From Helicobacter cetorum (GTDB lineage: Bacteria; Campylobacterota; Campylobacteria; Campylobacterales; DZAY01), in the NCBI GenBank assembly GCA_022729735.1, contig DZAY01000005.1:40420-104419 (forward strand): DNA of 64,000 nt, in the 5' to 3' direction. This document shows, one piece after another, positions 5,259 to 51,990 of the stretch. How positions within the stretch are numbered: position 1 is the first letter of the stretch; each line of letters opens with the position of its first letter. The notes beneath the pieces were generated by a model that was given only the letters and a program-made list of their open reading frames with translations, was not told where the DNA came from and ran no database searches. A program made the position numbers and the translations under genes.

Positions 5259-5262
5259 GATT

Positions 5263-8285: not shown

Positions 8286-8296
8286 AAAGGAGTGAT

Positions 8297-22400: not shown

Positions 22401-23306
22401 GCTTATATTTCCATCATTTATATCTTTTTGAGTAAATGTGCTATTTGTATCTAATAAAACTCCATTTTTATATAAATTTCCATGTATCGGCAAAGAGTTT
22501 AAATGATATACTAACTCTTCTGGTTTTTGTTCTTTATCAGTCGTATTTAACTCTGTACCTTTTATAACTTTTGTTGTATTTTCATCTATTCTCATTTCGC
22601 TAATTTTAATTTCTGGTGGAGTAATATTTGCACACTCATTCACATTCAAATTCAAAAGAGCATTGCTATCATATTCTACATTTCCTCCACCGTTTATTCT
22701 TATTTCTTTTCCTGAAACAATAGCACCTTTAACTGTTCTATTTACATGTATATTAGCATTAGGTGCATATATAAAAGCATTAAGAGGAGATGATGTTTGC
22801 ACTGCAAAATTATTTGTACCAAGATATATTATAACAAGCTTAGATGATTCTGTGTTATCAAACTTCCCATCTAATGTAATATTTCCATTGATGTAAATTA
22901 TAGTAGTACTACTTCCTGTTAGATGAACGGTTTTACCACCATTTAACTGAAAGTTTGAAAAATAGTGTGTGCCGTCTGTGAGATATAAATCAGTATCATT
23001 TTGATGAGCAAGGTCTGGGAAATTTGTATAACTACCAGAACTATTTAATTCAAGTGCTTCAACATTCATATTGCTTTTATAACACTCTAAACCATCACAT
23101 CTTGAATTTAAATTATTCCCAGAAAGATTTGTAGTATCTAATACTCTATCTCCTGTTGAAGTTAATGTTCCATCTATATAAATAGTTCCACCAGATAGAT
23201 TTGATACAGCATTACTAAAAACCAAGGAGCATTGAGGTGAAGCAATAGCACCCATATTAAACCCAAAAACTATTAACCCAAAAACAATACGAATAAAATT
23301 TTTCAT
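16407..23306 (-). CDS. Giant MshQ-like pilus-associated adhesin (2299 aa)
   Basis: Signal peptide; three CSPG/cadherin-like repeats (FTQxDI); two related internal modules; Ig-like domains; MshQ-type C-terminus (YSDIG, FTPKQF, FYYGR, PEYL). Heads the minor-pilin operon. Confidence 0.8.
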   Translation of the reverse strand: MKNFIRIVFGLIVFGFNMGAIASPQCSLVFSNAVSNLSGGTIYIDGTLTSTGDRVLDTTNLSGNNLNSRCDGLECYKSNMNVEALELNSSGSYTNFPDLAHQNDTDLYLTDGTHYFSNFQLNGGKTVHLTGSSTTIIYINGNITLDGKFDNTESSKLVIIYLGTNNFAVQTSSPLNAFIYAPNANIHVNRTVKGAIVSGKEIRINGGGNVEYDSNALLNLNVNECANITPPEIKISEMRIDENTTKVIKGTELNTTDKEQKPEELVYHLNSLPIHGNLYKNGVLLDTNSTFTQKDINDGNISYKHDGSETTSDSFNFGVTDGTLSSSPLGTMQIYVNPINDAPVITPVNLFVNVNESAKIINLNLPATDAEEYPAQLVYTITTLPTNGTIKLNGVNLGVGGTFTQSDIDYGRVTFVSNGTISLSRLYFNLTDGFNIVSSSLGIKINSLPQIINKSITVNQNERKIVTNSNLKATDNEENTSQLVYTITALPTKGVIYYSGVAITSTSQNFTQKDIDDGKIEYLHTYGDDSNDSFNFNVSDGYGSVNDIMIITINKATSNLQTGYEDFRLVYNSNLYGNIKLIGNVVLCEKSGGNCVPNSTKANNDVRTYYVDVDNNSSTFNSSSADLVLRPDAKIKYALLSWQGRTENISECIRTETQCTRYWSNGTCRTWSNICVEERTNINRLKLKTPLSPNYTEIDALDGGKCFYNGESYQCYKNITNLIKDSGTYTVADLYVDEGQTNYYGAWALTVAYEDLQDSYKNLSLFTGYKNVQDSTGYRRVDINISGFLTPASGNVNSELFVFAGEGDLPYRDDKFQLTDKIGNFQNVDASNINNVFNSSINNGTPRNPTLNNNMGIDIDVFSVGTTGSNIISNSQTSTTIRLETSGDQYYPGMVAFATELYSPKVCYLETIYKNDLIVDENTSIFLGDRLVFEVNVSNIGTEEASKVQIDKIFDAPLGYNKTNGTYLNGVQKTNAVGDDEVDYVDSEYKLKVRVGTGANATNGGQIAVNGKAEYKYNSDIISYPQNGEINNTYMVNYVSDTLKMNFNNVVPKCVDNAFINTTIYVSKFSVEANVTPKNSNGDVSVGYNKTINYTVKLTNKAPFNEDNPKISVSLLDGFVFTGLVTANGWDCPPPPPYTISNNLECQLNGTINKDGNFSEFSFTIKSPNSDRDFYSQVEAKSSLDTKTLGKSNPQRIIVGEGLEADVMLSLKMEDSNGVGIGDNGVIPIDTEFSLIVDISKLSSHTLTNSKLLVDLNETNIESIKYSIDGGSTYINIAPEDIADGNITIPLGDISVDTTTIKIDVKGKEIGSNITNYVKLTSDVSFIPSAKKDDFKTINIGLMAKPKPFDTIFSKNLQGDYKVFSGTSGIISISNIPTNAKIEYARLYWYGYLSNYRDDILYKTADSITFKSNSVTYPNTNIVIDSNNLAYQGSLDVTNEINSSGDYSISGIEYSSGFAGWILVVAYEDNSTIKKIRNVAIQDGFVGIANRSEKNETNGIFERNSTKNFNLKDANTTIFGYGGNSGGDDKMLVDTQSYLNKFEEASDNKIVLNFTLLNEIDFSVDNSDKYFVGVVATSALKEPLLFTTNLKDRDGNDITTDNPAEVGETITVSVTIKNQHDYDLTNINIVDILLDEDKFELVNSDNVPNSLSLNKYGEETFTYTIRAKSEDTTDFKATYQTDFSENVIGGNSFEGIEIESGDDIKLVPPTLTDFDILNPLRSGEHNNSITTKTAGEAFDLTITAVNPETIGDKNYQVRVKIVDVTNGNTVVVPFSSWEVINKDHTSYTFTIPAINESYKHLQPILEWRLISEEDALINKQDAEVIDDKKGEENLDSFAIKPYSLTMLFLRSSYIAGLTHSELQFSASDNGYIQGDTNLTIIYNKYMPNKIDIDNSLNGNFVKGSPFTINGTAVTLVDFNYSDIGYIDLNLTDKKWTEIDQPNDCVSNSCSNAKDSEGKVGCDICANSNMVKFTPKQFEVTFINQPYLDNNFSDANFTYYSNDLNMSALVRNLSLKIKAINHLNEITKNYSNGLYEENITLSNIFNIPDNPIHVDDNLSFNNEDLSFIDGETTLNLNDYRFNYSRAYNTLLEPRFINGTQVDINFTIKDNSLVEGNVTTNPDKNATFYYGRVKGKDVTIYDKSVDAKIYSEIYCKTCNKVEMGISGFSVSPNDIGWYINSKDSVSEVKAINLKPNENMSGTSLAPIPFNNGDITRNFSYSGTNEKHKEIVHLSIPEYLYYTKFGGAYIEFATSQSPLNHPTFSLEFISSLTNDWGGSGKTVDDTVKVKKQDVNSSIRMQW

Positions 23307-23455
23307 AGTTTAGCCTTTTTTTAACTTATCAATCTTGATATTTTTAATAATACTTAAATAAACACTTATTGCAACAAATACAAATCTAATATATTTTACT
23401 CTTTTTTTTATAAAATATAGTATCTATTTTATAATTTTTAGTAAGTTAATTTCTT

Positions 23456-26400
23456 TTAGAAACAGTTATGTTTCAACCAAAATGAACTATTTTTTGAAAT
23501 ATTAGAATTGCTCCATCTATTACTAATACTATCATAATAAAAATATTGAGAAAAATCTCCTAATTTACAACTACTTGGAAGTATGTTTATCTCTTTTAAA
23601 TCAGTTTTATTTAAATCAAATTGTGTTGATACTAAATGCCAAATATTTGGTTCTAAACTTTTATAATATTCTAATTGTGATGTTTTTGTAATTATATTAT
23701 AAGAGCTATTTTCATCACCATGAATTAGTTTTATTTTATTTAATGTTGGCATAATCCATAATCCCATTTGTGCATTTATATTTGTTGGATTTTGTATATA
23801 AGTTTTATTTACTATATCCCAACTCCAAATACTACTATTTTCTAATAACTGCTCTTTGAAACTATTTTTGTGAAAAATGTAATTTTTAATAGTTGAAATT
23901 TGGTTCCATTGTAAAGGCATTAAATTTTCTACAACACCATTTCCAAAATATCCAATTAAATACTCTTCATCTAATAACATATTTTCAACTATTTCAGCTC
24001 TTTTTATAAATGCAACACCACTTTTAAGCTTTATTGTTCGTTTTCCATCGAAATATTGCTTATCTTCAAATACAGTTTCGCTACTATAATTTACATCACA
24101 CACAGGATTATAATCACTTGGCATATGAAAACCATAACTACCATCTTCAGTTGTAAATGTAGAAATAACACCATCATATATATTTGTATCTATTTCTCTA
24201 AAAATTGTAGGAGTTCCTTTAAATATATCAATATTCTCTATTTTTGATATTGATTTAGAGTCTAAAGAGACAGTTTTATTAATATCACTTTTTTCAATTA
24301 CACTCTCTATTCCTATTAAATTTTTTGCATTAACCATAATATTTAAAAACATATTGTGAGGATTTAACTCTTCATCTTTTGCTTTTATATAGATATTTGA
24401 AACTGTTGATTTATTACTATCAATGCTAACTATACTATTTTGAGGCAGTTTTATAGAGTGTGTTTTTGTATTTGATGTCTCATTTTTTTCAACTGATAAA
24501 ATTAGTGTTCCATTTATATCTTCTTCTATTTTTTTTACACCAACTATTGAATTAGTATCATTTTGAAAAGGAATAAAACCTGATAATCTACCATTACTTT
24601 TTAATTCTACGACAAAATCTTTATATACCGAAATATTGTATTCATTTATTACACTATTTGATGGTGCAATAGTTATTGTAGATATATCAAAATACTCTTT
24701 TGTATTATCCTTTGGAATAGCAATTTTTGTAATAATTATATTTCCATTTTCTACTACTGTCCCATTTGTTTCAAGCTCTATAATATCTAATGTTTCTACT
24801 TTTACAATAGTTACATTTTCATCAACTCCAGCTCTAATAACTCCACCAAAATTTGGTATTGTTTGCTCACTAAATCCAACTATTGTTTCAATGCTACTTG
24901 ATGAGCTTTCACTTGAAGATGAACTAACCAGACTCGAACTACTCGAACTACTCGAACTACTCGAACTACTCGAACTACTCGAACTACTCGAACTACTTGA
25001 ACTACTCGAACTACTCGAACTTGACAAGCTTGAAGAACTATTAATTATACTTGATGATGAATAACTAATAGATGAGCTACTACTTGATGAAGAATTAGTA
25101 ATATTTATTTGATACACAGTATTACTCATTAAATTTACACCATCATTCATAGATATATATACATTTAACATACCAGTTGTATCTGGAATAGCAGATACTG
25201 TTGCTACTAAATCTTGTGCATTATAATCCACAAAAGCTAATGGATTACTCCAATGTGGAGTTACAGTTATAATACCTGTCATGCTTAATTCAACTGTTAT
25301 ATTTAAATCATCTTCATCAATATCTGTAATATTATTAAATGTTATGTTGAAATCACTAAAATTTGTATTTTTTTCTATTAAATTAAGAGTTGATTGATTA
25401 GATGTTGGAGTTGCATTACGAGTCCTAAATATTGCATAAAATCCAGCATAAGTGAAACTACTAATAGCACTCTCATCAAAAGCTTCTTTAATATATCCAT
25501 TTTTAGCAATAATTAAATCTCTTAAAGCACTGTTTTTATGATTACCACTTAAAAACATAGCTCTTGCTGTTGAATTTGTATCAATATTTATAGATGGTGT
25601 TCCTGCTATTATTATATTACCACCATTTCCATCATGAGCATATGAGTTTAATCCAGCATTAATAATAATTGCATTTTGTGAAGTTGAAGTAGTGTTTATA
25701 TCATTTGTTATAGTTATATCACCTGCTGTTGTAGATATTGCTATATCTCCACTTGCATTTATATCTTGTAGTGTTAAATTGCCTTCATTTTTGATATTTA
25801 GAGACGTTACATTAGCTTTTAAACTATTAATATGATTATTTTCATGTGTAAAATTATTAGTTCCTCCAATAAGATTTAGTGTGCCATTAATATCAAGTGA
25901 GCCAGTGTGAATTGCTTGAGTATTTGAATAAAAAGTTAAATTATTATCAGTTTTAATTGTAGATGTACCTATTCCATAAAATACATCTCCAATAATTTCT
26001 ACACTACTCGAATTTATATCACTATCTGTTAAATATACAGAATATGGAGTTTGAGTTCCATAGCTAAGCCCTTCAAGTTTTATTTTACCACCATTTAAAA
26101 TAGCTTTAGCACCACTATAAAACATAATACCTGCATTTTTTTTACCACTACCTTTGATATGAATTCCACCACCATTTGTTGTTTGAATAGTAGAACCCCA
26201 ATTCACAACACCATAAGCATTACTTACAAAATCTGGTTCTGCACTATGTCCTTCAATTACAATCGCATTTTCTAAATTACTATTTGATGTAATTAAATTA
26301 CCTATACTATCGCTATTACAACATTTAGATAGCTCAATACCATATCCAGAACCACTAAGACCATCAGATTTACCATATAGATTTATAACTCCATTTTGAG

Positions 26401-28324
26401 AGTTAATTATAGTTCCACCAATTAAAAGTATTCCTTCCGTAGTATTTGATATTGGCGAATAAACACTTGTAGAAAAACTCGTTGCTGTGCCATTTCTACT
26501 TTTACCTCTTATAGTAATATTTCCATCATTAGATAAAATTTCTGCTTTATCAATCAAAATACCATTAGAATTCAAACTACTTCCAATAGCATAATTACTA
26601 TATAAATCATTTCCACCAGATAAAATTATATCTCCACCAAAACTATTTATCGTAGTTTTAGCAGAGCTTGTTGGACTATTTCCATAACCTATCCAAATTG
26701 AGCCACCATTATTATCAGTATCTGCCCAAAAAGTTATATTTAATTTACTTGATAGTGAAGAGATATTAGTATCTTTATGAACTAAAATATCTCCAGCAGA
26801 TTTAAATGTAATATTTTTATCACTACTTGAACTATTTATGATATTAGAAGCTATTTCAATATTATAACCAGCTAAAATAGATACATTACTATTTGATAAA
26901 TTGCTTTCAATATCTTGAGTGTTAATATTGCAATTTCCATTAGTATAAAAAAAGAAAACACCATTTAAGATGGCATTTGCACAATTTGTATTTGAACTAC
27001 TATTTATTGTGATATTTCCAATATTTGGAGTTATCGTAGATTTTGTAGTTACACTAAAATTTACATCAACTCCACCAATTGTAAGAGTTGTTGTATTTGT
27101 TTCACCATAACCATTTGGACTAATTAATTTTACTTTTACACTATTTCCATTAGAAATAGTCCCATTTGTATCAGTATATGCTCCTCCATTTATACTATAA
27201 AATCCATTTGTTATAGATATATTTGATGCTGTATCTATTCCAGAAATAGTAACACTGTTTGACTCAATTTCGCTATTTAATTCACTGTTGTTTTGTTCTG
27301 TAAATACAAAACTATTCGGAGTTGTATCTGCTGAAATATTCACTTCATAAATACTTCCTTTAGTATATCCAACATAATAAAGTAGCTGATTTGGAATTTT
27401 AACAGCAATACCAACAATACCTTCACTTTCACTATGTGTTATAGTATCTACTAAATTTGTATTAACCAATGTCGTAGGATTTATAACATTTATACTTCTA
27501 TTATAAGAGTAGTATATATTTCCATCACTATCAAAAGCCAAACCATTAATATTGCTTGTAGCTGTTGCAATAGTAGTTAAATTATTATCTATTAAATCTA
27601 TTTTTATCAGTTTAGTCTTACAAGTCGTATAAATTGCATTATTATGATATAACAAACCACCTTCACTTGTATCTGTACTTCCATTGCTAGTACATCCTTG
27701 AGAAGATAAACTATATGTATATTCATGAGTTCCATTTAAGCTAAATCGTTTAACATCAGGATACCAATAACCATTCATAAATATATGAGTATCATTAGTA
27801 TCAATTCCATAATTAGTTTGGCTTGAATTTCCAGGTGCTGTTAAAGCAATTTGAGAGACACCAGAAGAATTGAATTTTTGCAATTTACCTTGATTCATAC
27901 TACCTAAATATATATCTCCATTTGATGCTTTAGAAAAATGAAATGGAGAACTAAATGAAGCATTCAAAGGATTAACATCATTTATTATAGAATTTGTACC
28001 ATTTCCAGCAACTGTTGTTACAGGATATGTATCACTCAATGTAATTTTTCTAATTTTACCACCAGGATTTGTAGAATATGAGTTATTTCCAGTATCGAGT
28101 ACTAATAAATTTCCATCATTATCAAATTCTAATCCTCTTGGATAAAAAAAAGTTGCACTTATTCCAACATTGTTATCTGTTTGAGAAACATAATAGTTTC
28201 CATCACCAGCTATTTTTGTTACAACAGTTCCAGCAATACCTTGATTTAAGAAGATGAATATAAATACTATTAGCATATATTTAAATCTACTTAAAAACAT
28301 TTTATCCACACAAATTTCTCTCAT
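23456..28324 (-). CDS. Large mosaic surface protein: NHL propeller, FHA-like beta-helix, poly-Ser linker, Trp-rich C-terminal module
   Basis: AGAGG RBS; signal-peptide-like N-terminus; NHL repeats (PRGLEFDNDGNLLVLDTGN); GNITIRGKS-type repeats; long Ser run. Confidence 0.75.
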   Translation of the reverse strand: MREICVDKMFLSRFKYMLIVFIFIFLNQGIAGTVVTKIAGDGNYYVSQTDNNVGISATFFYPRGLEFDNDGNLLVLDTGNNSYSTNPGGKIRKITLSDTYPVTTVAGNGTNSIINDVNPLNASFSSPFHFSKASNGDIYLGSMNQGKLQKFNSSGVSQIALTAPGNSSQTNYGIDTNDTHIFMNGYWYPDVKRFSLNGTHEYTYSLSSQGCTSNGSTDTSEGGLLYHNNAIYTTCKTKLIKIDLIDNNLTTIATATSNINGLAFDSDGNIYYSYNRSINVINPTTLVNTNLVDTITHSESEGIVGIAVKIPNQLLYYVGYTKGSIYEVNISADTTPNSFVFTEQNNSELNSEIESNSVTISGIDTASNISITNGFYSINGGAYTDTNGTISNGNSVKVKLISPNGYGETNTTTLTIGGVDVNFSVTTKSTITPNIGNITINSSSNTNCANAILNGVFFFYTNGNCNINTQDIESNLSNSNVSILAGYNIEIASNIINSSSSDKNITFKSAGDILVHKDTNISSLSSKLNITFWADTDNNGGSIWIGYGNSPTSSAKTTINSFGGDIILSGGNDLYSNYAIGSSLNSNGILIDKAEILSNDGNITIRGKSRNGTATSFSTSVYSPISNTTEGILLIGGTIINSQNGVINLYGKSDGLSGSGYGIELSKCCNSDSIGNLITSNSNLENAIVIEGHSAEPDFVSNAYGVVNWGSTIQTTNGGGIHIKGSGKKNAGIMFYSGAKAILNGGKIKLEGLSYGTQTPYSVYLTDSDINSSSVEIIGDVFYGIGTSTIKTDNNLTFYSNTQAIHTGSLDINGTLNLIGGTNNFTHENNHINSLKANVTSLNIKNEGNLTLQDINASGDIAISTTAGDITITNDINTTSTSQNAIIINAGLNSYAHDGNGGNIIIAGTPSINIDTNSTARAMFLSGNHKNSALRDLIIAKNGYIKEAFDESAISSFTYAGFYAIFRTRNATPTSNQSTLNLIEKNTNFSDFNITFNNITDIDEDDLNITVELSMTGIITVTPHWSNPLAFVDYNAQDLVATVSAIPDTTGMLNVYISMNDGVNLMSNTVYQINITNSSSSSSSSISYSSSSIINSSSSLSSSSSSSSSSSSSSSSSSSSSSSSSSSSSSSLVSSSSSESSSSSIETIVGFSEQTIPNFGGVIRAGVDENVTIVKVETLDIIELETNGTVVENGNIIITKIAIPKDNTKEYFDISTITIAPSNSVINEYNISVYKDFVVELKSNGRLSGFIPFQNDTNSIVGVKKIEEDINGTLILSVEKNETSNTKTHSIKLPQNSIVSIDSNKSTVSNIYIKAKDEELNPHNMFLNIMVNAKNLIGIESVIEKSDINKTVSLDSKSISKIENIDIFKGTPTIFREIDTNIYDGVISTFTTEDGSYGFHMPSDYNPVCDVNYSSETVFEDKQYFDGKRTIKLKSGVAFIKRAEIVENMLLDEEYLIGYFGNGVVENLMPLQWNQISTIKNYIFHKNSFKEQLLENSSIWSWDIVNKTYIQNPTNINAQMGLWIMPTLNKIKLIHGDENSSYNIITKTSQLEYYKSLEPNIWHLVSTQFDLNKTDLKEINILPSSCKLGDFSQYFYYDSISNRWSNSNISKNSSFWLKHNCF
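24932..25021. repeat. Tandem repeat, 10 x 9 bp (ACTCGAACT), encoding poly-Ser on the minus strand
   Basis: Nine perfect units plus one ACTTGAACT variant (24995-25003), read directly. Confidence 0.95.
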
Positions 28325-28378
28325 TTTAATCCTCTATTTTTAATTTTTTTATAATCTCAAAATTATACTTAATTTAAA

Positions 28379-29620
28379 TCACCTTTCTCCAAATGCTTCA
28401 AATTTTAATTTTATTGCAGGACTAATTATATAATCTAAAACAGTTTTTTGTCCAATTTTTATACTTATATCAGCACTCATACCAGAGTATAAATCCAAAA
28501 CATTCCCATCACTATCTATATAACTATCTTCTAATTTAATTAAAATTTCATAAAATCTACTATCTTTTTCACTTTTTGTATCTGCTCCAATATTTATAAC
28601 TTTTCCATTTAGTGAGCCATATCTTGAAAAGTCATAACCTTCAAATCTAATAATAGCACTCTGATTTAGTCTAATATAAGCTCTATCTATTGGTTTAACT
28701 TTTGCTAAAAGTATCAAATTATCTTTTGGAACTATCTCTAAGATTACTTCACCACTCTTTACAACTCCACCAATTGTAAAGAATTTCATATTTTTTACAA
28801 TACCATCAATTGGTGCTTTTATATCACTTCTAATATTTTGATTTTGAATACTATTTAACTGCTCTTGTGTATTTAATATTTGCTCTTGTATTGAAGCTAA
28901 CTCTTCAATAGACTCTTTTTTAAATGTTTGTGATTTATGTTCTAACTCTGCTTTTGATTCTTCGATTGATAATTTTATTTTTTGTATAGAGTTTATTAAT
29001 GCTTGTATCTCATTTTCATTAGATTTTAACTCATTTTCTATATTTAAATGCTCTATTTTAGTTGTTAATTTATCTTCTAATAGTTTTCTTGAGAGTTCAT
29101 ATTTCTCTTTTAATATTAAAACTTTTTCTTTTGAGAGTAAAGTTTTGGAATTTATTTCATCAATTTCACTCTCTTTTTGTTTTATTTGTTCTTTTATTAT
29201 TGATAATGATTGTTTTTGATTATCTCTTTTTTTATAAAATATATCTAATTGTGATTTTGCAAAATCGCTATTTTTTAACTTTGTATCTATTTTTAAACTA
29301 CTATTATCTATTTCTGCTTGTAATCTTAATTTTATAATTTCTAAATTAGATAGTTTTAAAGCTAACTCATCATAACTATTTTCTGATGGTGGTTGTGAAA
29401 GTTTTAATAGTAGCTGATTTTCTTTTACAAAATCTCCATCTTTAACAAAAATTTCAGAAATAATTCCTCCTTCTAAATTTTGAATACTCTTATTTCTCAC
29501 TTCACTAATTGCTTCACCTTGACATTTAGCAACAATATCTATTTTAAAAAAATATGCCCAGATAAAAAGTATTACTAAAAGAATAGCTATTAAATATGCT
29601 ATTTTTTTACTGTTATCCAT
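28379..29620 (-). CDS. HlyD-family type I secretion membrane fusion protein
   Basis: Start reassigned to MDNSKK at 29620; IQNLEGGII, IKAPIDG, GGVVKSGE.ILEIVP, YGSLNG, GMSA and VLDYIISP. Confidence 0.92.
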   Translation of the reverse strand: MDNSKKIAYLIAILLVILFIWAYFFKIDIVAKCQGEAISEVRNKSIQNLEGGIISEIFVKDGDFVKENQLLLKLSQPPSENSYDELALKLSNLEIIKLRLQAEIDNSSLKIDTKLKNSDFAKSQLDIFYKKRDNQKQSLSIIKEQIKQKESEIDEINSKTLLSKEKVLILKEKYELSRKLLEDKLTTKIEHLNIENELKSNENEIQALINSIQKIKLSIEESKAELEHKSQTFKKESIEELASIQEQILNTQEQLNSIQNQNIRSDIKAPIDGIVKNMKFFTIGGVVKSGEVILEIVPKDNLILLAKVKPIDRAYIRLNQSAIIRFEGYDFSRYGSLNGKVINIGADTKSEKDSRFYEILIKLEDSYIDSDGNVLDLYSGMSADISIKIGQKTVLDYIISPAIKLKFEAFGER

Positions 29621-31118
29621 TTTTTCCAACTTTGATATTTTTATTATCAAATATAAATATATAATCACTACTACTTATTAAATCTCTATTTTGTGAGACA
29701 ACTATTATTGTTCTACTTTCTTTAACTTTTTTTAAATACTCTATTAACTGTTCTAATACCTCTTTTTCAAATATATCAAATGTATCATCTATTAAAACTA
29801 TTTTACTATCTTTTAAAAGTGCTTTAAGTATGGATATTGCACTTTTTTCTCTTTTTGATAATGGATTTCCAAACATATCAATTTTAGTTAAAAAACCACT
29901 ATTTGTATTGTTTATGATTGCAAATAAGCCAGATTTTTTAACTTCTAAAATAGTTTCTTCATCACTTAATTTTGAATTTTTTAAATTATCTAATATAGTT
30001 CCATCAATAAACATATCATTTTCACAACTCATAGATATAAATTTTGTAAAACTTTTATTATCTATTAATTTTATATCAATTCCATCAAAGCATATTTCAC
30101 CAGAATAGAAATCTATATTTTTTGATATGAGTTTTAGAAATGTTGTTTTTCCTACACTTTTATTTGATACAACTACCGATATTTTATTTGCTGGAAGTGT
30201 AAAATTATCGAATCTAAATAGTAAATTTTTATTAAAATTTAGTGCTAAGTTTTTAAAACTAATTTCGCCTGAAATATTATCAATTTTAATAAATCTATCT
30301 TCAACAATTGGCTTTGAAAAATATTTATATATATTTATAAAACCTTTTATAGAATTATTTTGAAACATAATTATCATGGGTTGTAAAAATCTACTTGAGA
30401 GCATATTTGTAGCAATTAATGCACCAAAAGATAGATTATGTTCAACTATTTCTATTGCACCAATTGAAGTAATAAACAGAAGTGAAAATGGAATGGAGAG
30501 ATAGTTTATATTTTGAATAATATTTTGAGCTTTTATTTTTTTTAATTTCAACTCTAAATTAGCACTATTTAAATCTTCTAATTGACCAATTAATTTTTCT
30601 AATATATCAATATTTGAACCTTTATCTTTTAGAACTTCTATTTTATATTTCAATCGTTCTCTATCTTTTGAAAATTGATTATATTTATTATCTAACTTTT
30701 TATTTACAATAGAATATATTATATTTATAAAGGCAACTAATATAAATACAAATATAAGTGTCAATCCAAGTATTTGACTAAAATATAAAATAATCATCAA
30801 AAAAAGAGTAGCAAATGGTAAATCCAAAATAGATATAATTGATTGAGTATTTATACTCTCTTTTGAAAATATATTTTCCAATTTTATATTATAAAAACTT
30901 ACTATTTCATATCTAACATATCTAAATATATAATCAAAAATTAAGAATATAACAGCTCCAAATGTCAAAGAAAATAGAGTGTAATAACTATTATGAGGTA
31001 TAACTTTATCATAAACATTTAATATAAAAATTGGAATTGTAAGTGCAAATATATTTATAAAAAATGAAAGTATCAAAAGAGAAAATATATCACTCCACTC
31101 TTTTGATAAAAGTTTCAT
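29613..31118 (-). CDS. T1SS-type ABC transporter subunit with degenerate NBD
   Basis: T1SS TM start (INIFALTIPIFILNVYDKVIP) and LSFGALIA; NBD motifs altered (SNKSVGKTT, LSKRE, IVLIDD, VSQ). Confidence 0.85.
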   Translation of the reverse strand: MKLLSKEWSDIFSLLILSFFINIFALTIPIFILNVYDKVIPHNSYYTLFSLTFGAVIFLIFDYIFRYVRYEIVSFYNIKLENIFSKESINTQSIISILDLPFATLFLMIILYFSQILGLTLIFVFILVAFINIIYSIVNKKLDNKYNQFSKDRERLKYKIEVLKDKGSNIDILEKLIGQLEDLNSANLELKLKKIKAQNIIQNINYLSIPFSLLFITSIGAIEIVEHNLSFGALIATNMLSSRFLQPMIIMFQNNSIKGFINIYKYFSKPIVEDRFIKIDNISGEISFKNLALNFNKNLLFRFDNFTLPANKISVVVSNKSVGKTTFLKLISKNIDFYSGEICFDGIDIKLIDNKSFTKFISMSCENDMFIDGTILDNLKNSKLSDEETILEVKKSGLFAIINNTNSGFLTKIDMFGNPLSKREKSAISILKALLKDSKIVLIDDTFDIFEKEVLEQLIEYLKKVKESRTIIVVSQNRDLISSSDYIFIFDNKNIKVGKNG

Positions 31119-44025: not shown

Positions 44026-44087
44026 AAAGGAGTAGTCGCCATAATTAGAGCTAAGTAGCTTTCATTATCTAAGCCGACTTAAATATG
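44026..44087 (+). promoter_or_regulatory. Structured leader: Shine-Dalgarno, 46-nt hairpin, ATG
   Basis: AAAGGAG at 44026-44032; pairings AGTCG/CGACT, ATAAT/ATTAT and AGAGCT/AGCTTT over 44034-44079; ATG at 44085. Confidence 0.6.
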
Positions 44088-47000
44088 AAGATAGGTAGAA
44101 GTATTGTATTAGCCAATCTCCTCATTGGCATAGGTTTTGGTGCAACAGATGTAAGTTTTACAACAACTCCAACAGGTTATATAAAAGATAAATCATCTGC
44201 TAAGTTATGCTTAAGTAATTATAACTACTCAAATCCAGCAAATGCTTATGTAGATTATAATTATAGCTATGATAATAATGGAACTTGGTTTGATGCTAAT
44301 GGTATAACGGATTGTGTATATATGAGCCTACTTAGTGATGGAACACACTCTGTAACTGTAAAAGCTTGGACAAGTGATTATAATAGTTCTATTACAAGCA
44401 CTTATAGTAATAATACAACATCTTCATCATTCGTAATTGATACAACAGCTCCAACATCACCAACACTAATTACAAATACAAGTATGGGTGGAACAACTAC
44501 AACAAATGCAACGGATATAAACATTACAACAAATGGAGATTTAAATTTAACTTTTAATTCACCACTAAGTAGTAGTGATATTACATATTATAGATACTAT
44601 TTAAACTCTAAAACTTATTCAAATGATATAAATGTAACTAAATTTAATACAATTGAATTGGAAAATTTAGGAGATGGAACTCATACTTTATATATTTGGT
44701 CAAAGGATTTAGCAGGAAATGAACAAAGTGATACTCAAAGAACTAAAGTAAATATTACAGTAGATTCTACTAAACCAACTATATCTACAATCAATTATGA
44801 TGCTTTTACTCTAAAAAGTGCTTTAGAAGTTAATGTTACAACTGATGAAAATATTAGTAACTATAAATATGATGTAAATGGAACTGGTTTTGTAACTGTT
44901 GCAAACAGTCCAACTGATAAAGGTTTTGATTTATCTCTTAGCAAAACAACTGGGGAATATAATATTTCTATTTTGGTGCAAGATTTATATGGAAATTGGA
45001 GTGAAGAAAAAAATATAACAATAGTAAATGATACTCAAAGTGCAAAACCTAAAGTTTATGGATTTATTCCAAATGGAAGTGGAACATATAGTATAAATTT
45101 ATATCCAGCTGGAGAGAGAATTTCTAAATATAAATATAGTATTAATGATGCTCCATATAGCTCAACTTACAATGTAAATGAAGCAAATATTTCACTTAGC
45201 AACTCTCTATTTGCCAATGGATTAGACCATAATATAACTATCATATCTTATGATTTTGATAATAATAGCTATACAGAAACTTTTAAATGGAAACAGTTAA
45301 GTGATAGTAATAACTCTATAACATTTATAAATTTACCAACAGCACTTACAAATTCAAAAACTGTAAATACAACATTTAGTGGAGTTAGTGGAGTTAATTA
45401 TAGTTATGAATTAAATGGCTCAAATAGTTTTGGAATTAGTGGTTTTGCTACAACTAGTGGAACTATTAGCACAACAGTGAGTAGTGATGGAGATTATAAT
45501 ATTTCAATTATTGCACCAGATAATAATAAAACTATATATAGCTTTAAAGTTGATAGCACGGAAATAAATTCAAGCAGTGCAAACTTTGCTTCAAATATAT
45601 CAAAAAATGGTGGAATAACTGCTGATAATCTTTTGAATTTCAAACTTTATGCAAAAGATGCAATAGCTTATAGTTATGCTTTAAATGGAAACACATATTC
45701 AAGCACTTATCCAATCAGCTCAAATACAATTTCACTTACAGGTTTAGGAGCAAATAGCTACTATTCACCAATCAGTAGTTCAAATTTACCAAATTTTGGT
45801 GCAGGTGGAACTGTTGAAGAGACTCTATATCAAGAGATGTTAAATATAAAATTTTTAGATTTAGCTGGAAATTGGAGCAGTCCAATAGCATTTAACTACT
45901 ATATAGATAATATCACTCCAAGTTTTGCAATTAGCAAAGCTGATGCAAATGAAACACACACAATTTTAAATATAAAAGCAACATCAAGTGATGCAAAAGA
46001 GTTTAGTTACTCACTAAATAGTGACACATATTCAAAATATATTCCTTTAAACTCTTTATTAGAAGCAAATGTAACTTTTGTAAATTTAAAAAGTGGAGTT
46101 CATAACTTTAGTGCAAAAGTAAAAGATAAAGTTGGAAATGTAGCATCGCCAATATCTTATAGCTTTAGTGTTGGAAATGCTTCAATTCCAACAGTTGGAA
46201 TTAGTTATATTGCATCACAAGTTTCAAATCTTCCAAATATTGGAAATGCAATTTATGTAGGTTATCCAGTTAGTTTTGATATAAATGATAGCACATTGAC
46301 ATATTATGCTTGGAATTTTGGTGATGGAACAACTTCAAGCTCAAAAAATGCAAGTAAAACTTATACTCAAGCAGGAACATATACAGTAACTTTTGTTGGA
46401 AGATATGCAAGTGGAGTTGAAACTACTACTTCACAAACTATAAGTGTTGGAACTCTTAGCTCATCTCAAACATCAATACCAACTACAACAACTCCAACTA
46501 CAACAGTAACTACTCCAGTAGTAAGTTATCCTGTTGTTGAAACACCTATTATTAGCACACCAATAGTAACAACTCCAACTATTCCTACTTTATCAATAAA
46601 TGGTAATTCAGTTACATATAGCTCAAGTGGATACTCAAATGTTACTAAAACAGTAGTTAGTGGCAAAGATGCCGTAGTTGTAAATAGTGGTGAAGTAACA
46701 ATTAATTTAAACCAAAATACACCTTTAGCAGTTGGTCAAACACTAATTTATCCAAATAGTAGTGGTAGTATAAAAGTATTATCAGGAAGTAGTGCAGATT
46801 ATGGTGTGTTTAACTCATACTCTAAAAGTGGAAATAGAGTTGTAATAATACCAACTCAAAAACTAACAATCGACTCTAATATAGTAGAAGTTGGAGAAAG
46901 TGTAATATTTGAAGATGGTATTTTGAAATATATTGTATATGGCGATGGAAGTAAAACAACTATTGGAAATCCTATTAATAGTTCTACATTAAGTAGTAGT

Positions 47001-47696
47001 TATGGATTAACTATAAATAGTGGATTTTTGCCATATATTAGTGGAGATGCAAGGGGTTATAATTTAACAGACTCTTTAAATGAAGTTATATCTAATAAAT
47101 TTGGATTTAATTATAAAATTTCTCAAAAAAGTAGTGGATTAGCAGATAATAATAATGCTCTATTTGGAACACTTTCACTTCAACCAATTGGTTATATTGA
47201 AGCAGTTTCAAATAAAACTCCATCAATAACTCAAAATAGTGATGCAACACTTACAGTAGTTACAGAAAGTGCAAAAGTAAAATTAGCTCCTATGATTTAT
47301 GATATAGATGCCTTTAAAGCTAAATTCGGAACATCTACAATATATTGGCAAGATAACCATATTGAATTTAACCAAAATAGTAAAAGATACTCATATAGAG
47401 CTTATCCATTCATAAATCCAACTTATAGAAGTGGTGAATATTATGAGTTTAGCTCTAAAAAACAGTATATTTATCCAGCATCACATATGTTTAATGAGAC
47501 AGATAGTGCTTTCAAATCACTTTTTGGAAATTCTGTAAGCGAAACTTTTATGGGTAAAATAGTGGTTGGTAATAGTGTTTATTCAATCTCACCAGAGTTA
47601 ATATATGGAACACAAAACCAAACAGTTGTAAATAGTGGTAACACAATATCTATAAAATATAGTGATGGCTATATTCAGAAATTTATAAAGGAGTAG
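44085..47696 (+). CDS. Exported Ser/Thr-rich multi-Ig/PKD surface protein (1203 aa)
   Basis: Signal peptide; repeated Ig-like units (DGTH, DLAGN, DTTAP); PKD motif WNFGDG...YTQAGTYTV; Pro/Thr linker; distinct C-terminal domain. Confidence 0.8.
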   Translation: MKIGRSIVLANLLIGIGFGATDVSFTTTPTGYIKDKSSAKLCLSNYNYSNPANAYVDYNYSYDNNGTWFDANGITDCVYMSLLSDGTHSVTVKAWTSDYNSSITSTYSNNTTSSSFVIDTTAPTSPTLITNTSMGGTTTTNATDINITTNGDLNLTFNSPLSSSDITYYRYYLNSKTYSNDINVTKFNTIELENLGDGTHTLYIWSKDLAGNEQSDTQRTKVNITVDSTKPTISTINYDAFTLKSALEVNVTTDENISNYKYDVNGTGFVTVANSPTDKGFDLSLSKTTGEYNISILVQDLYGNWSEEKNITIVNDTQSAKPKVYGFIPNGSGTYSINLYPAGERISKYKYSINDAPYSSTYNVNEANISLSNSLFANGLDHNITIISYDFDNNSYTETFKWKQLSDSNNSITFINLPTALTNSKTVNTTFSGVSGVNYSYELNGSNSFGISGFATTSGTISTTVSSDGDYNISIIAPDNNKTIYSFKVDSTEINSSSANFASNISKNGGITADNLLNFKLYAKDAIAYSYALNGNTYSSTYPISSNTISLTGLGANSYYSPISSSNLPNFGAGGTVEETLYQEMLNIKFLDLAGNWSSPIAFNYYIDNITPSFAISKADANETHTILNIKATSSDAKEFSYSLNSDTYSKYIPLNSLLEANVTFVNLKSGVHNFSAKVKDKVGNVASPISYSFSVGNASIPTVGISYIASQVSNLPNIGNAIYVGYPVSFDINDSTLTYYAWNFGDGTTSSSKNASKTYTQAGTYTVTFVGRYASGVETTTSQTISVGTLSSSQTSIPTTTTPTTTVTTPVVSYPVVETPIISTPIVTTPTIPTLSINGNSVTYSSSGYSNVTKTVVSGKDAVVVNSGEVTINLNQNTPLAVGQTLIYPNSSGSIKVLSGSSADYGVFNSYSKSGNRVVIIPTQKLTIDSNIVEVGESVIFEDGILKYIVYGDGSKTTIGNPINSSTLSSSYGLTINSGFLPYISGDARGYNLTDSLNEVISNKFGFNYKISQKSSGLADNNNALFGTLSLQPIGYIEAVSNKTPSITQNSDATLTVVTESAKVKLAPMIYDIDAFKAKFGTSTIYWQDNHIEFNQNSKRYSYRAYPFINPTYRSGEYYEFSSKKQYIYPASHMFNETDSAFKSLFGNSVSETFMGKIVVGNSVYSISPELIYGTQNQTVVNSGNTISIKYSDGYIQKFIKE

Positions 47697-47699
47697 ATT

Positions 47700-48230
47700 G
47701 TGAAGAAAATTCTATTAGCAGTTAGCATATTTAGCTCTATCTCTTTTGCTTATACTTTGGAGAGTGGGTGGAATATGGTTGGAAATTGTGGAACTACTCC
47801 GATTGTAGTTTCATCAATTGCAAAAAGTGGTGATAAAGTATATAGTTATGATGGAGTTAAGTGGAGTGAATATTCAGATTCTAAAAAAGAGCTTTCAAAT
47901 ATAGCTTTAAATAGAGGTGTATGGTTTTATTCTAAAACTAAAAGAGATATAGATTTGGGTGAATCTCAAGTATCAGTTGGAAGTTATATAGTAGATAGTG
48001 TTGATTGGAATCTTTTGAGTGCAAATGGATATATAAAACCATCAGATTTAGATAAAACTACATTTAGTGCTATTTGGAACTACTCAAATGGTGAATGGAA
48101 AGGGTATTCAAACTCTATCAATAGCTTATCAATTATTAAAAAAGGTGATGCTTTTTGGATAAATAATCTATCTTCTACTAAAATTAAATATCAAGACCCA
48201 AAAACTTTATTAGAGGATTTCTTTAAATGA
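47700..48230 (+). CDS. Exported protein made of two Trp-rich 'GWNL' repeats
   Basis: Signal peptide (SFA|Y); GWNMVG...YSYD..W...RGVWFY and DWNLLS...WNYSNGEW...GDAFWIN; GTG start with AGGAG RBS. Confidence 0.75.
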   Translation: MKKILLAVSIFSSISFAYTLESGWNMVGNCGTTPIVVSSIAKSGDKVYSYDGVKWSEYSDSKKELSNIALNRGVWFYSKTKRDIDLGESQVSVGSYIVDSVDWNLLSANGYIKPSDLDKTTFSAIWNYSNGEWKGYSNSINSLSIIKKGDAFWINNLSSTKIKYQDPKTLLEDFFK

Positions 48231-48799
48231 ATAAAAACATCATAGTAGCTCTTAGTGCAATTGTAATTGTTGGACTATTTGTTATTTTAATTGACAGTGA
48301 AGAAGAGATAAGAACTCCTAATATTGTAAAAAAAGAAGAAGTTATTGCAAGTAGTAGCACAAAATCAGTTGATATTAGTTATAAATCTTCTGTATCTTCA
48401 TCTTTAAAAGAAGAAATAAGCCAATCTTCTTCATCTATTGAAAAAGAAGCTAAATATAGAGTTTTTATTACAGATGAAAGTGGTGTAGAGATAAAAGCAA
48501 ATAGTGGTTTAGCTGTAAATATTTCATATCACCATGATAATAATAAAAAAGATGTTTTATATATTCCACAAGAGTATATTGGTAAATCTATTACATTTAA
48601 TGCTTATGATGGTGACACTCCAATTATTACTCACAAATTGGATTTTTTACAAAGTGTAAATGATGGAACAGATGTGTTAAGCGTGAAATTAGATTTAAAA
48701 AATATTGGAAGAGGTAGCTCTTTTGATATTACAAAAAAAGAGAGTGAGCGACCTGCTTTACCAGCTCAAAAAGGTGACCTTCCAAACTTTGGAGATTAA
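48227..48799 (+). CDS. Membrane-anchored protein with Ser-rich linker, function unknown
   Basis: N-terminal TM, SSST/SSVSSS/SQSSSS linker and a small beta-rich domain; ATGA overlap. Confidence 0.7.
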   Translation: MNKNIIVALSAIVIVGLFVILIDSEEEIRTPNIVKKEEVIASSSTKSVDISYKSSVSSSLKEEISQSSSSIEKEAKYRVFITDESGVEIKANSGLAVNISYHHDNNKKDVLYIPQEYIGKSITFNAYDGDTPIITHKLDFLQSVNDGTDVLSVKLDLKNIGRGSSFDITKKESERPALPAQKGDLPNFGD

Positions 48800-48802
48800 A
48801 CT

Positions 48803-50551
48803 ATGAAAAAATATTTTATTATATTAACTCTTTTATTAGCAAACTTGTATGGAAGTTCATACTATTATAGAAGTGGAGCTATTGAAGTTTTAAATGAGGT
48901 GAATTTTAATAGAGATTTAAATCGCTATTTTTTAAGAGGTAATGGTGATTTTATAGCAATTACAAATCAAGAGATACTCTTAAAAACTGGTGATATTTCA
49001 AAAATTTCTAAAGATTATAATATAACCATTAAAAGAGATTATTCTAATGGATTGTATTTAATAGAAGCACAAAACTTGGATACTCTCAAACTTTCAAATG
49101 AGTTTGTAGAAAAAAAGTTGGTAGATTTTGCACATCCAAATTTTTCTGTGCCTCATAAAAAAAGAGCTGAACCTCTGTTTATTCAACAATGGTATCTATA
49201 TTATGAAGAGCAACTACTTAGAAAATTTGGTGGTGAAATAGATAGTAGTATAAATGTTGAAGGTGCTTGGGAAATTACAAAAGGCAAAGGTGTTAAAGTT
49301 GCAATTATTGATGATGGATTTGATTTAGAACACCAAGATTTAAAAGATGGCTATATAGCACCAAAAAGTTTTTATAGATATAACAATGATGTATCTCATG
49401 TTGAAAAAAATGACCATCATGGAACTGCTTGTGCTGGAATTATTGGAGCAAGAGAAAATAGTTATGGAATGATAGGTGTTGCACCTGAGGCAACTTTAAT
49501 TCCTATACAAATCTACTCATCTATCCTATCTGATACAATAGAAGCATTTTATTATGCAAGAAATCAAGGTGCTTCTGTAATTAATTGTAGTTGGGGAACT
49601 AATAATGTAGATGATGCCTTAAAAGAGGTAATTGATGACTTAGCTACAAATGGAAGAGATGGCAGAGGAATAGTTATAATTTTTGCTACTGGAAATGATA
49701 ATATTAGTATAGAAACAGATGAATCTGGATTAGCAAATGTTATAGGTGTTGGTTCATCTACTAATGAAAATATGAGAGCATGGTATTCAAATTATGGCAA
49801 AGAGGTTGATTTAGTTGCTCCAAGTGGTGGTGGAACACTCACTGTAACTACACTTGACCCAACTGGTGATAACGGTAAAGTTACTCTTAGTTCATCTCAT
49901 CCAGATTATATGTTTGGCACAGATTCTACGGGCTTTAATGGCACATCTGTATCAGCTCCTATTGTTAGTGGTGTAGTTGCTCTTATGTTGGCAATCAATC
50001 CAAATTTAAGTAAAGATGAAGTTCAAGATATTTTACAAAAAACTGCAAAAAAAGTTGATTATTTAAGTTATCCAAATATAGATGGAAGAAATGACTATTT
50101 AGGTTATGGTAAAGTAGATGCCTTTAGAGCTGTAAAAAGAGCAAAAGAGAGTTTAGAGTCAGAAACTACACTATCTTTAAAAAGTGGTTGGAATTTAATA
50201 TCACTGCCAAAAGGTAGTAGTTATAAACTGTCTAATATAGAAAATATTGACAGAGCATTTAAATATAGTAACGGTGATTGGTTAGTTTATAGAGAAAGTT
50301 TTGATACTATAAATCAAAGTGAAGGTGTATTTGTTTATTTAAATAGTGATACAAATGTAACTTTTAGTGGAAAGCCTAATCAATTTATTGATAGCAATTC
50401 AAGTGGTTGGAGATTAATTGGTTCTCAAGAACATTTATATGAGTTAAGTGAAAATTATAATTTTGAAATTGCTTGGAAATATAGTGAAGGAGTTTGGGTT
50501 ATGCCTTTTGATATTGAAATAGGAGAGGGATTTTGGGTCAAAAAAGATTAG
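48803..50551 (+). CDS. Exported S8 subtilisin-like protease with C-terminal 'GWNL' module
   Basis: Triad IIDDG, HHGTACAG and GTSVSAP; oxyanion ATGN; GYGKVDA; C-terminal LKSGWNLISLP...GEGFWVK. Confidence 0.92.
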   Translation: MKKYFIILTLLLANLYGSSYYYRSGAIEVLNEVNFNRDLNRYFLRGNGDFIAITNQEILLKTGDISKISKDYNITIKRDYSNGLYLIEAQNLDTLKLSNEFVEKKLVDFAHPNFSVPHKKRAEPLFIQQWYLYYEEQLLRKFGGEIDSSINVEGAWEITKGKGVKVAIIDDGFDLEHQDLKDGYIAPKSFYRYNNDVSHVEKNDHHGTACAGIIGARENSYGMIGVAPEATLIPIQIYSSILSDTIEAFYYARNQGASVINCSWGTNNVDDALKEVIDDLATNGRDGRGIVIIFATGNDNISIETDESGLANVIGVGSSTNENMRAWYSNYGKEVDLVAPSGGGTLTVTTLDPTGDNGKVTLSSSHPDYMFGTDSTGFNGTSVSAPIVSGVVALMLAINPNLSKDEVQDILQKTAKKVDYLSYPNIDGRNDYLGYGKVDAFRAVKRAKESLESETTLSLKSGWNLISLPKGSSYKLSNIENIDRAFKYSNGDWLVYRESFDTINQSEGVFVYLNSDTNVTFSGKPNQFIDSNSSGWRLIGSQEHLYELSENYNFEIAWKYSEGVWVMPFDIEIGEGFWVKKD

Positions 50552-51990
50552 AAGTAGCTCTCCATTTTTTACTTATATTAGTAGTTGCATATTTTACATT
50601 TATGAAAAATTATCAATATCCAGATGCACAATTTTGGGATGAAAATTACCATATAGCTTCAGCTCAAAAATATGTTGATGGTGTTATGTATATGGAGCCA
50701 CACCCTCCACTTGGTAAAATGTTTATCGCACTTGGGGAGCATTTAATAAATCCAAATGCAAATATAAATAGAGATGAGTTTTTAAAGACAGATTACATTA
50801 AAACATTTCCTAATGGTTACTCATTTAAGGGAGTTAGATTTTTCCCTACTCTATTTGCAATGCTTGGAGCAGGACTTTTTTTCTTACTTTTATATCAAAT
50901 AAGTAAAAATTCGCTAATTTCTTTACTATTTAGCTCTCTTTATCTATTTGATAATGCTTTAATTATTCATTCAAGAAGTGCTATGCTTGAGAGCAGTCAA
51001 ATATTTTTTATACTACTTTCATTAGTTTATCTATTTTATTTAATTAATAAGCCTACTATTGCTAAGTGGTTTCACTACCTAATTTTTGGATTTAGTGTTG
51101 GATTTATTATTGCAATAAAAGCAAATGGAGCAATTTTTATACTGCTTTTTATATTTTTAGCATATTTTGATATTTATAAAAATCTATCTTTTAAAAGTTT
51201 GCTTTTTTATAGAGAGTTAATTATAAAAGGGGTTATGTTTAGTTTAGGAGTAGCTTTTATATTTTTTGCTACATTTTATATTCACTTCTCACTTGGAAAA
51301 GAGATAAAAGATAATAGAAACTACTCTGCAAGTAGTGAGTATTTAGAAATTATAAAAAATGGAGCAACTTCTAATTTGCTAAATTTTCCAATTATGATGA
51401 GAGATAATTTTGCATATATGAAAAAATATCAAGAAGGAGTTCCACAACTTGATATTTGTAAAGTTGGAGAAAATGGAAGTTATCCTGCTGGTTGGACACT
51501 TGGAATTAAGAGTATAAATTATAGATGGGCAAAAAACAGTGATGAAGTTAGATACCTTTATCTTCAAGGAAATCCAATTGTATGGTTTGGTTCACTTATT
51601 GGTGTGATTTTAGCTTTTATATTAATTGGTGCAAAGTTTGTTTTTGGTTTAGAGATAAAAGAAAAACGAGAGTTTAACTATATGATAATTTTTATGACTC
51701 TATATTTAGCATATATGATAGCAGTTATGCAAATTCCAAGAGTTATGTATTTGTATCACTATTTTATACCTCTCATTTTATCTATGGTTATACTATTTTT
51801 GGTATTTAACTATATTTTTAAAGAGTTATTAGAAGATAAAGTGTTATTAGGTGGTTTAATATTTGCTGTATTGCTTATTATATATGTGTATAACTTTTTT
51901 GCTCCACTTACATATTATGAGCCTTTAACTCAATCTGAATTTATAAAAAGGGTGTGGTTTGATTTCTGGATGCTTAAACCAATTCTCTAA
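50533..51990 (+). CDS. PMT/GT39-family glycosyltransferase (protein O-mannosyltransferase-like)
   Basis: WDENYH acidic motif, HPPLGK, SRSAMLE, GNPIVW and RVMYLYHY; multi-TM; AGGAG RBS 7 nt before the TTG start. Confidence 0.88.
   Translation: MGQKRLEVALHFLLILVVAYFTFMKNYQYPDAQFWDENYHIASAQKYVDGVMYMEPHPPLGKMFIALGEHLINPNANINRDEFLKTDYIKTFPNGYSFKGVRFFPTLFAMLGAGLFFLLLYQISKNSLISLLFSSLYLFDNALIIHSRSAMLESSQIFFILLSLVYLFYLINKPTIAKWFHYLIFGFSVGFIIAIKANGAIFILLFIFLAYFDIYKNLSFKSLLFYRELIIKGVMFSLGVAFIFFATFYIHFSLGKEIKDNRNYSASSEYLEIIKNGATSNLLNFPIMMRDNFAYMKKYQEGVPQLDICKVGENGSYPAGWTLGIKSINYRWAKNSDEVRYLYLQGNPIVWFGSLIGVILAFILIGAKFVFGLEIKEKREFNYMIIFMTLYLAYMIAVMQIPRVMYLYHYFIPLILSMVILFLVFNYIFKELLEDKVLLGGLIFAVLLIIYVYNFFAPLTYYEPLTQSEFIKRVWFDFWMLKPIL

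Follow-up and report, generated by a model that had tools for sequence, protein, structure and literature searches.

A stretch of 64,000 nucleotides from a Helicobacter cetorum assembly (GCA_022729735.1, contig DZAY01000005.1, positions 40,420 to 104,419 of the forward strand; hereafter the window) was found to encode a tryptophan-rich protein module belonging to a large and real domain family that is named in none of the libraries searched. The module is a pair of repeats of about 60 amino acids (aa) each, with the pattern 'GWNL...W.Y..W...G.GFW'. In the window it makes up almost the whole of a small exported protein of 176 aa (p176), and it forms the C-terminus of a 582-aa subtilase and, in a diverged form, that of a 1622-aa surface protein (Table 1). 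Our tentative reading is that it serves as a portable, non-catalytic tether or binding module on exported cargo, probably cargo of a type II secretion system (T2SS), and holds that cargo at the cell envelope.

The N-terminus of p176 resembles a signal peptide by eye (MKKILLAVSIFSSISFA) and is followed by repeats at aa 20-87 and 97-165. In the subtilase, a hidden Markov model (HMM) placed the repeats at aa 457-522 and 529-582, the protein ending three residues past the last FW. BLASTP aligned p176 with the subtilase at E 3e-4 (23% identity over 137 collinear residues), and pairwise comparison of repeat 1 with repeat 2 of p176 gave E 0.005. The two-repeat module that an earlier note, made from the letters alone, had described on these two proteins was thus confirmed by HMM, by BLASTP and by the comparison of repeat with repeat, and the coordinates that it gave for the open reading frames (ORFs) proved correct. 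A seed HMM built from the four repeats of p176 and the subtilase identified 10 further ORFs at E<=4e-5 among the 9,721 stop-to-stop ORFs of the same genome (G000, 2.5 Mb), and iteration converged on 13 ORFs with 24 repeats. Across 454 aligned repeats, the W of the opening G-W-N-L was conserved in 99% and the L in 88%.

Within this genome the module was always located either directly past the signal peptide or at the extreme C-terminus of its carrier. N-terminal copies began 2-6 residues past a signal-peptide-like segment, and C-terminal copies stopped 0-3 residues short of the stop codon. Carrier types overall included peptidases of the S8, C11, C10 and trypsin types, an MtrC-like cytochrome, giant proteins with RCC1 or NHL repeats, a beta-propeller protein, and Lcl_C and CAP proteins. 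The proposal that this is a portable domain on unrelated exported proteins is therefore strongly supported, and with carriers as diverse as peptidases, a cytochrome and giant surface proteins it had been understated. Fusion to the N-terminus is stable in two families: all seven beta-propeller homologues identified in relatives kept an N-terminal module directly past the signal peptide, and so did the C11 orthologue.

The family extends well beyond this genome. In a search of 1.84 billion cluster representatives (50% identity clusters), a profile of ten modules matched 12,265 representatives at E<=0.001, 1,631 at E<=1e-10 and 19 at E<=1e-30; a word-indexed search with p176 as the sole query returned only p176 itself. 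Matches were present in 14 of 41 related Campylobacterales genomes (G000 included), three of which held 67, 28 and 26 of them. In a phylum-wide sample, 6 of 201 genomes matched at E<=1e-5; the two families sampled best, with 64 and 83 genomes, gave no match. The distribution in Campylobacterales is patchy. The few named matches included Campylobacterales, Bacteroidota and, among DPANN archaea, Nanoarchaeales and Aenigmatarchaeota, the proteins being labelled 'hypothetical protein' or given unrelated names, and neighbours in the Atlas were unnamed clusters of Cloacimonadota and Lentisphaerota. Carriers were surveyed in 179 stored proteins, from which two giants of the window were left out, and 178 had at least one repeat: one repeat in 6 proteins, two in 141, three in 9, four in 21 and six in 1, a count that is biased because the query was itself a repeat pair. 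The repeat pair is the unit. By position, the module was C-terminal in 90 of the 178 carriers, N-terminal in 42 and internal in 29, while 16 carriers were short (<=260 aa) and one was covered over its whole length. A crude hydrophobic-start test of our own was passed by 128 of the 161 carriers that start with Met.

The repeats align significantly, and no characterised domain was matched in Pfam, NCBIfam or the sequences of the PDB. Pfam (to E<=0.1) and NCBIfam returned nothing on p176 or the subtilase tail, and 15 short homologues gave only sub-threshold matches. DUF1737 appeared on 5 of these 15 (best E 8e-5, below the cut-off) and was dismissed as a motif resemblance, the matches covering only about 15-18 residues around GW. 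No Pfam family was found in more than five of 74 carriers; these were proteins of 261-1000 aa taken in identifier order up to a residue limit, a selection that left out 43 carriers of >1000 aa, 15 of <=260 aa and those past that limit. Precomputed Pfam lists for 35 carriers held no common family, and PDB sequences gave no match at E<=10. The AlphaFold2 (AF2) model of the p176 module was of high confidence (pLDDT 92.3, pTM 0.86) and all-beta, with about six strands per repeat. Foldseek returned nothing from the PDB at E<=1e-3 for this model, and in a VIA-align comparison with 48,161 chains the best Z score was 2.9. The RCK_C, HPr and cupin chains at the head of the VIA-align results (Z 2.9 for p176, Z 4.3 for the tail of the 1622-aa protein) were taken as common small-beta arrangements. 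A Foldseek match in BFVD to a 'putative hemin binding protein' of an uncultured marine phage (E 5e-4, TMq 0.61, 17% identity) is probably another carrier and gave no functional clue. A weak or missing structural match is not proof of a new fold. No title among those listed in the literature on 'GWNL' or on surface proteins and sorting in Campylobacterota dealt with the domain.

The C-terminus of the 1622-aa protein, which the earlier note had counted as a third member, does belong to the family, mainly by virtue of repeat 1 and of a preceding segment that we call the pre-module. The single-repeat HMM scored this protein at independent E-values (iE) of 0.21 and 1.3, exactly at the two places first noted, and a broader repeat HMM gave nothing below iE 1. 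Alignment to the module profile with hhalign gave 80% probability and E 1.3e-5 over 115 columns, and a 206-position profile of the C-terminal unit, built with the 1622-aa protein excluded, scored it at E 1.5e-13 (50 bits). In the alignment its last 220 residues shared the plan of the C-terminal carriers, with the pre-module, two repeats and the key Trp residues all kept. The pre-module, of about 50 aa and with the consensus FE..Q.FDGKR.IKL..G.A...M..N.EY.L, precedes the repeats in the 1622-, 1280-, 724- and 2365-aa proteins and in many database matches; neither the subtilase nor the N-terminal carriers have it, and no family matched it. The AF2 model of the 1622-aa tail was of moderate confidence (pLDDT 73.2, pTM 0.57), and 19 of its 50 weak structural neighbours were the same PDB entries as those of the p176 model, which lends indirect support to a small fold predicted to be common to both. 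In the same protein, about 80 residues form a tract of almost nothing but serine (window ~25080-25300, -). Together with a 2299-aa cadherin-like protein it is encoded directly downstream of HlyD-like and ABC-transporter genes (16407-31118, -), which suggests a type I secretion locus despite the N-terminal signal-like segment of the 1622-aa protein. Elsewhere in the genome, a 1202-aa RCC1 protein gave a borderline module match; a masked run (X in translation) lies beside it at positions 1-440 of contig C58.

The gene for p176 follows that of a surface protein of 1203 aa, the start of which resembles a signal peptide and which has Big_13 and PKD domains (Pfam) and a linker rich in Thr. The absence of the module from this protein and the 3-nt gap between the two genes were both as the earlier note had described: none of four module HMM or profile scans matched the 1203-aa protein, whose TAG stop (47694-47696) is followed by one codon and then by the p176 GTG at 47700, in the same frame. 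A split gene had been suggested on these grounds, and p176 would then be the detached C-terminal domain of the 1203-aa protein, arising by a nonsense mutation or through stop-codon read-through; the shared frame, with only TAG and one codon between, would fit, and so would the fact that all the other large surface proteins of this type that the genome encodes have the module in cis. We consider this highly improbable and reject it, because p176 has its own ribosome-binding site (AAGGAG, 6 nt before its GTG) and a complete signal peptide, which is not expected in the middle of a protein, because a homologue stands alone likewise, and because the C-terminus of the 1203-aa protein has no similarity to the pre-module of C-terminal carriers, BLAST returning only PKD-region matches. 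The homologue, P0128, is a protein of 182 aa that is 39% identical to p176 over its full length, signal peptide and C-terminal tail included. The shared frame is judged a coincidence, since read-through would bury the signal peptide in the middle of the fusion. The C-terminal 399 aa of the 1203-aa protein had no match in 150 other Campylobacterales genomes, and its residues 800-1203 matched only themselves among 5.8 billion proteins; no locus related to p176 and P0128 was present in the genome and metagenome contigs searched. As judged from its sequence, p176 is an independently translated gene and not a broken-off gene end. It could still be the adaptor acting in trans that the earlier note had put forward as the other possibility.

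Clues to the role of the module came from the MtrC-like multihaem cytochrome. Of four N-termini of its homologues in relatives, one had a plain signal peptide, and in the other three a Gly/Ser-rich linker came after a lipobox Cys (four further matches were fragments or weak and were left out). In place of the lipobox, the G000 cytochrome carries the module and a Thr/Ser-rich linker. It is plausible that the module replaces the lipoprotein anchor in this family, which would imply retention on the producing cell. The earlier proposal of a surface-anchoring or sorting domain can thus be divided: anchoring is plausible given the lipobox of the cytochrome homologues, and a sorting signal is unlikely because the position of the module varies (N-terminal, C-terminal or internal), because it is separate from the tail of the type IX secretion system (T9SS) and because it occurs in archaea. 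In the carriers with a T9SS domain, PF18962 was a separate unit at the extreme C-terminus in 5 of 5, and the repeats were located upstream of it in P0158, P0171 and P0181.

The main rival to a tether is a module that binds substrates or particles in the manner of a carbohydrate-binding module (CBM) or a lectin, directed at external polymers, minerals or other cells and not at the cell's own surface. A ligand not tied to the envelope would fit the range of the family over Campylobacterota, Bacteroidota, DPANN archaea and, by Atlas neighbours, Cloacimonadota and Lentisphaerota; it would also fit the co-existence of the module with a T9SS tail that anchors already, the many carriers that are peptidases or adhesin-like repeat proteins, and the abundance of conserved aromatic residues. 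We regard it as rather unlikely. The module matched no CBM or lectin in either fold or sequence, its place in the cytochrome family, where it stands instead of a lipid anchor, speaks for a protein kept by the producer, and a cytochrome of extracellular electron transfer would be of little use once released.

A genomic link connects the module to the T2SS. The T2SS cluster of G000 (contig C20) encodes a PDZ-bearing GspC, GspD with an N0 domain, a pseudopilin and GspF. Full-length GspD was present in 13 of 14 module-bearing genomes compared with 13 of 27 others, two more being ambiguous (Fisher p=0.006, or 0.03 with the ambiguous counted), an association among related genomes that are not independent and one whose sole exception is a genome 83% complete. 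In G031 (contig C47), five module genes directly flank, on both sides, a T2SS operon of GspG, pseudopilins, GspF, GspC, GspD and a GspE-sized ORF. In G008 (contig C79, 337-7985), a T2SS operon opens with a stand-alone module gene that is complete (172 aa) and continues with unknown genes, a PDZ-bearing GspC, GspD and GspE; short module ORFs in relatives were mostly contig-end fragments, and this was the only complete stand-alone gene among them. The same arrangements, together with the nesting of the module within GspD-bearing genomes and a very diverse cargo that has one terminal folded domain in common, could mean that the module is itself the portable, self-folding terminal tag by which the T2SS of these lineages recognises folded periplasmic cargo, stand-alone copies then acting as a cargo mimic, pilot, plug or regulator. 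We think this improbable, as the family also occurs in archaea, and on T9SS cargo, which makes no use of the T2SS, as full-length GspD is also found in 13 of the 27 module-less genomes, and as no module gene adjoins the T2SS cluster of G000, the nearest being about 21 kb off. The recruitment of T2SS substrates is still called an open question (PMC7949064), and with module genes linked to T2SS operons it could be addressed directly at little cost. Within the window, a second secretin gene (547 aa, with only the C-terminal half of GspD matched) heads a long same-strand row (1547-10404, +) that may belong to a separate system from the T2SS of contig C20, one for pili or competence.

Our preferred reading, the tether, would run as follows. 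The module would be an internally duplicated all-beta domain in which two repeats of ~55-70 aa pack into one compact unit. Domain shuffling would have fused it to the extreme N-terminus, past the signal peptide, or to the C-terminus of unrelated exported proteins, which would be exported by Sec and would then probably cross the outer membrane via the T2SS. Outside, one extracellular ligand would be common to the enzymes, the multihaem cytochrome and the adhesin-like giants, most likely some part of the envelope of the cell itself, and the module would keep them on it. p176 would be an exported stand-alone copy whose gene shares a transcript with those of the adhesin-like protein that lacks the module, of a membrane protein and of the subtilase that bears it.

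Beside the non-independence of the genomes behind the GspD association, several points weigh against this proposal. The localisation of the carriers and the ligand are both predicted from sequence. The flanks of the carriers in G000 contained no recurring neighbour gene, and no partner gene was found. Some carriers already possess a T9SS tail, which gives its own surface anchor. As the archaeal envelope differs, and T9SS cargo too is among the carriers, a ligand peculiar to the envelope of this bacterium cannot be general. The lipobox argument comes from one protein family and four N-termini, and a stand-alone copy has no payload to tether. Lastly, by the sequence pattern, every second position around the invariant W and L of a strand is polar, and W and L may belong to the core and not to a binding face.

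The module marks a whole set of exported proteins in environmental Campylobacterota and is found well beyond the phylum. With a name for it, 'hypothetical' surface proteins could be annotated at their ends by the thousand. If the tether is real, it would explain how T2SS cargo that has no lipid anchor, including proteases and an electron-transfer cytochrome, stays on the cell, and it would offer a ready-made surface-display tag.

Table 1. Module-bearing proteins and adjoining features, with positions in the window where they lie in it
Feature	Position	Strand	Basis and remarks
1203-aa Ig/PKD surface protein, module-less	44085..47696	+	ORF call, Pfam; TAG stop 3 nt 5' of p176, same frame
AAGGAG Shine-Dalgarno-like site	47688..47693	+	Sequence read; lies in the final codons of the gene for the 1203-aa protein, 6 nt 5' of p176 GTG
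p176, exported stand-alone module protein (signal peptide, two repeats, 11-aa tail)	47700..48230	+	ORF, HMM, homologue alignment
p176 repeat 1 (aa 20-87)	47757..47960	+	Seed HMM iE 1.3e-30; AF2 strands
p176 repeat 2 (aa 97-165)	47988..48194	+	Seed HMM; AF2
p176 C-terminal tail DPKTLLEDFFK	48195..48227	+	D, P, L and F kept in 182-aa homologue P0128
p190, 190-aa protein with N-terminal membrane helix and Ser-rich linker	48227..48799	+	ATG overlaps p176 stop (ATGA)
582-aa subtilase with C-terminal module	48803..50551	+	Peptidase_S8 at aa 161-436
Subtilase two-repeat module (aa 456-582), reaching the C-terminus	50168..50548	+	HMM, BLASTP
1622-aa NHL/poly-Ser surface protein with diverged C-terminal unit	23456..28324	-	ORF, Pfam
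Pre-module of 1622-aa protein (about aa 1408-1460; FEDKQYFDGKRTIKL...), common to C-terminal carriers	23945..24103	-	Alignment, profile
Diverged two-repeat module of 1622-aa protein (aa 1470-1622)	23459..23917	-	HMM, hhalign, alignment, AF2, profile
N-terminal carriers in G000 (n=6)			Two clostripain-family (C11) peptidases; PF09826 beta-propeller; 778-aa protein, no family; MtrC-like multihaem cytochrome, cut by contig end; Lcl_C protein, single repeat
C-terminal carriers in G000 (n=6)			Subtilase; 2365-aa RCC1/LamG/Lcl_C protein; 1280-aa NHL/Big_5 protein; 724-aa protein; contig-end fragment; DUF2202 protein, single repeat

The genes for the 1203-aa protein, p176, p190 and the subtilase form a tight row on the + strand (44085-50551), the subtilase gene beginning 3 nt past the end of the p190 gene, and we read the four as one translationally coupled operon. 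The subtilase is classed by its match to PF00082, which took in aa 161-436 and the entire profile (positions 1-288 of 288) at E 1.6e-50. p190 had no Pfam family match, and it matched in 2 of the 41 related genomes, one of the two weakly, with no other relatives. A PMT-type (protein O-mannosyltransferase-like) membrane glycosyltransferase and a small PA14 protein are encoded 3' of the subtilase (50533-52540, +). The transferase was present in 5 of the 41 related genomes, four of these module-bearing, and in G031 (contig C49) a module gene is close to it; it could act on the Ser/Thr-rich linkers of the neighbouring surface proteins. The search for a partner gene by co-occurrence, which the earlier note had envisaged, yielded none here, as neither p190 (2/41) nor the transferase (5/41) tracks the module. 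Further along, the window carries a gene for a GmrSD-type restriction endonuclease with both N- and C-terminal domains (61870-63888, +).

In its logic, the closest known system is that of the Gram-positive WxL (csc/elr) gene clusters, which we keep as an analogy. It comprises a domain with two W-x-L motifs, a small domain-only protein, large proteins joining the domain to payloads and a membrane-anchored partner (PMC9772566; PMC10599100; bioRxiv 10.64898/2026.10.17.759780), and the preprint among these describes pilus assembly by donor-strand exchange and a confinement to Bacillota (bioRxiv 10.64898/2026.10.17.759780). The module likewise has two Trp-x-Leu motifs on beta strands, a motif that is short and on its own no proof of homology; it is an all-beta, non-catalytic terminal module with variable payloads; and here too a small secreted domain-only protein is encoded beside large domain-bearing and membrane-anchored proteins. 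Unlike WxL as these sources describe it, the module is a plain duplication of one repeat (the two motifs of WxL being given with different contexts), is N-terminal in about a quarter of its carriers (WxL is given as almost always C-terminal) and occurs in diderm bacteria and archaea (WxL is reported as confined to Bacillota); nor does it have a conserved chaperone-like partner. The WxL family PF13731 was not found on p176 or the subtilase at E<=0.1, nor at E<=1 on the 15 short homologues or in the whole genome, the Lactococcus lactis genome used as a control being positive. As for the DUF916/DUF3324 partner (WxLIP), p190 had no Pfam match and the best PF06030 hit of the genome (E 0.29) was on another contig; PF11797 was not searched separately. 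No WxL structures turned up for the module models in the PDB copies searched. Membership thus fails on most of the points tested.

One could still imagine a self-assembling attachment module working analogously to WxL, in which p176 polymerises or docks, module-bearing proteins are the payloads and p190 is the assembly factor. The gene set does parallel WxL clusters as described (PMC10599100; PMC9772566; bioRxiv 10.64898/2026.10.17.759780), p176 and p190 are translationally coupled, and the two W-x-L motifs are there. We nevertheless find the idea improbable: PF13731 is absent from the genome at E<=1, PF06030 reaches only E 0.29 in an unrelated place, p190 has no Pfam match or relatives, most module genes are scattered and have no such partners, p176 has no N-terminal extension before its first strand, and the module is often N-terminal.

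The C-terminal sorting domain of the T9SS (PF18962) resembles the module in being a small beta domain common to many unrelated secreted proteins, with many copies in some genomes and none in others. It differs in that the module is unmatched by PF18962 (with none on the proteins of the window), can be N-terminal, has stand-alone copies and, where a separate PF18962 tail is present, was located upstream of it.

Secreted enzymes can be held at surfaces non-covalently, or otherwise assisted, by accessory modules such as SLH, LysM and GW/SH3b domains, the PPC or P-domains of subtilases, and CBMs. From all of these the module is set apart by sequence and structure, no Pfam model matching p176 or the subtilase tail at E<=0.1 and no solved structure being close to the AF2 model. 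It nonetheless shares their character, being portable, repeated, aromatic-rich, non-catalytic and located at the ends of exported enzymes, and it is to this functional class that we propose to assign it.

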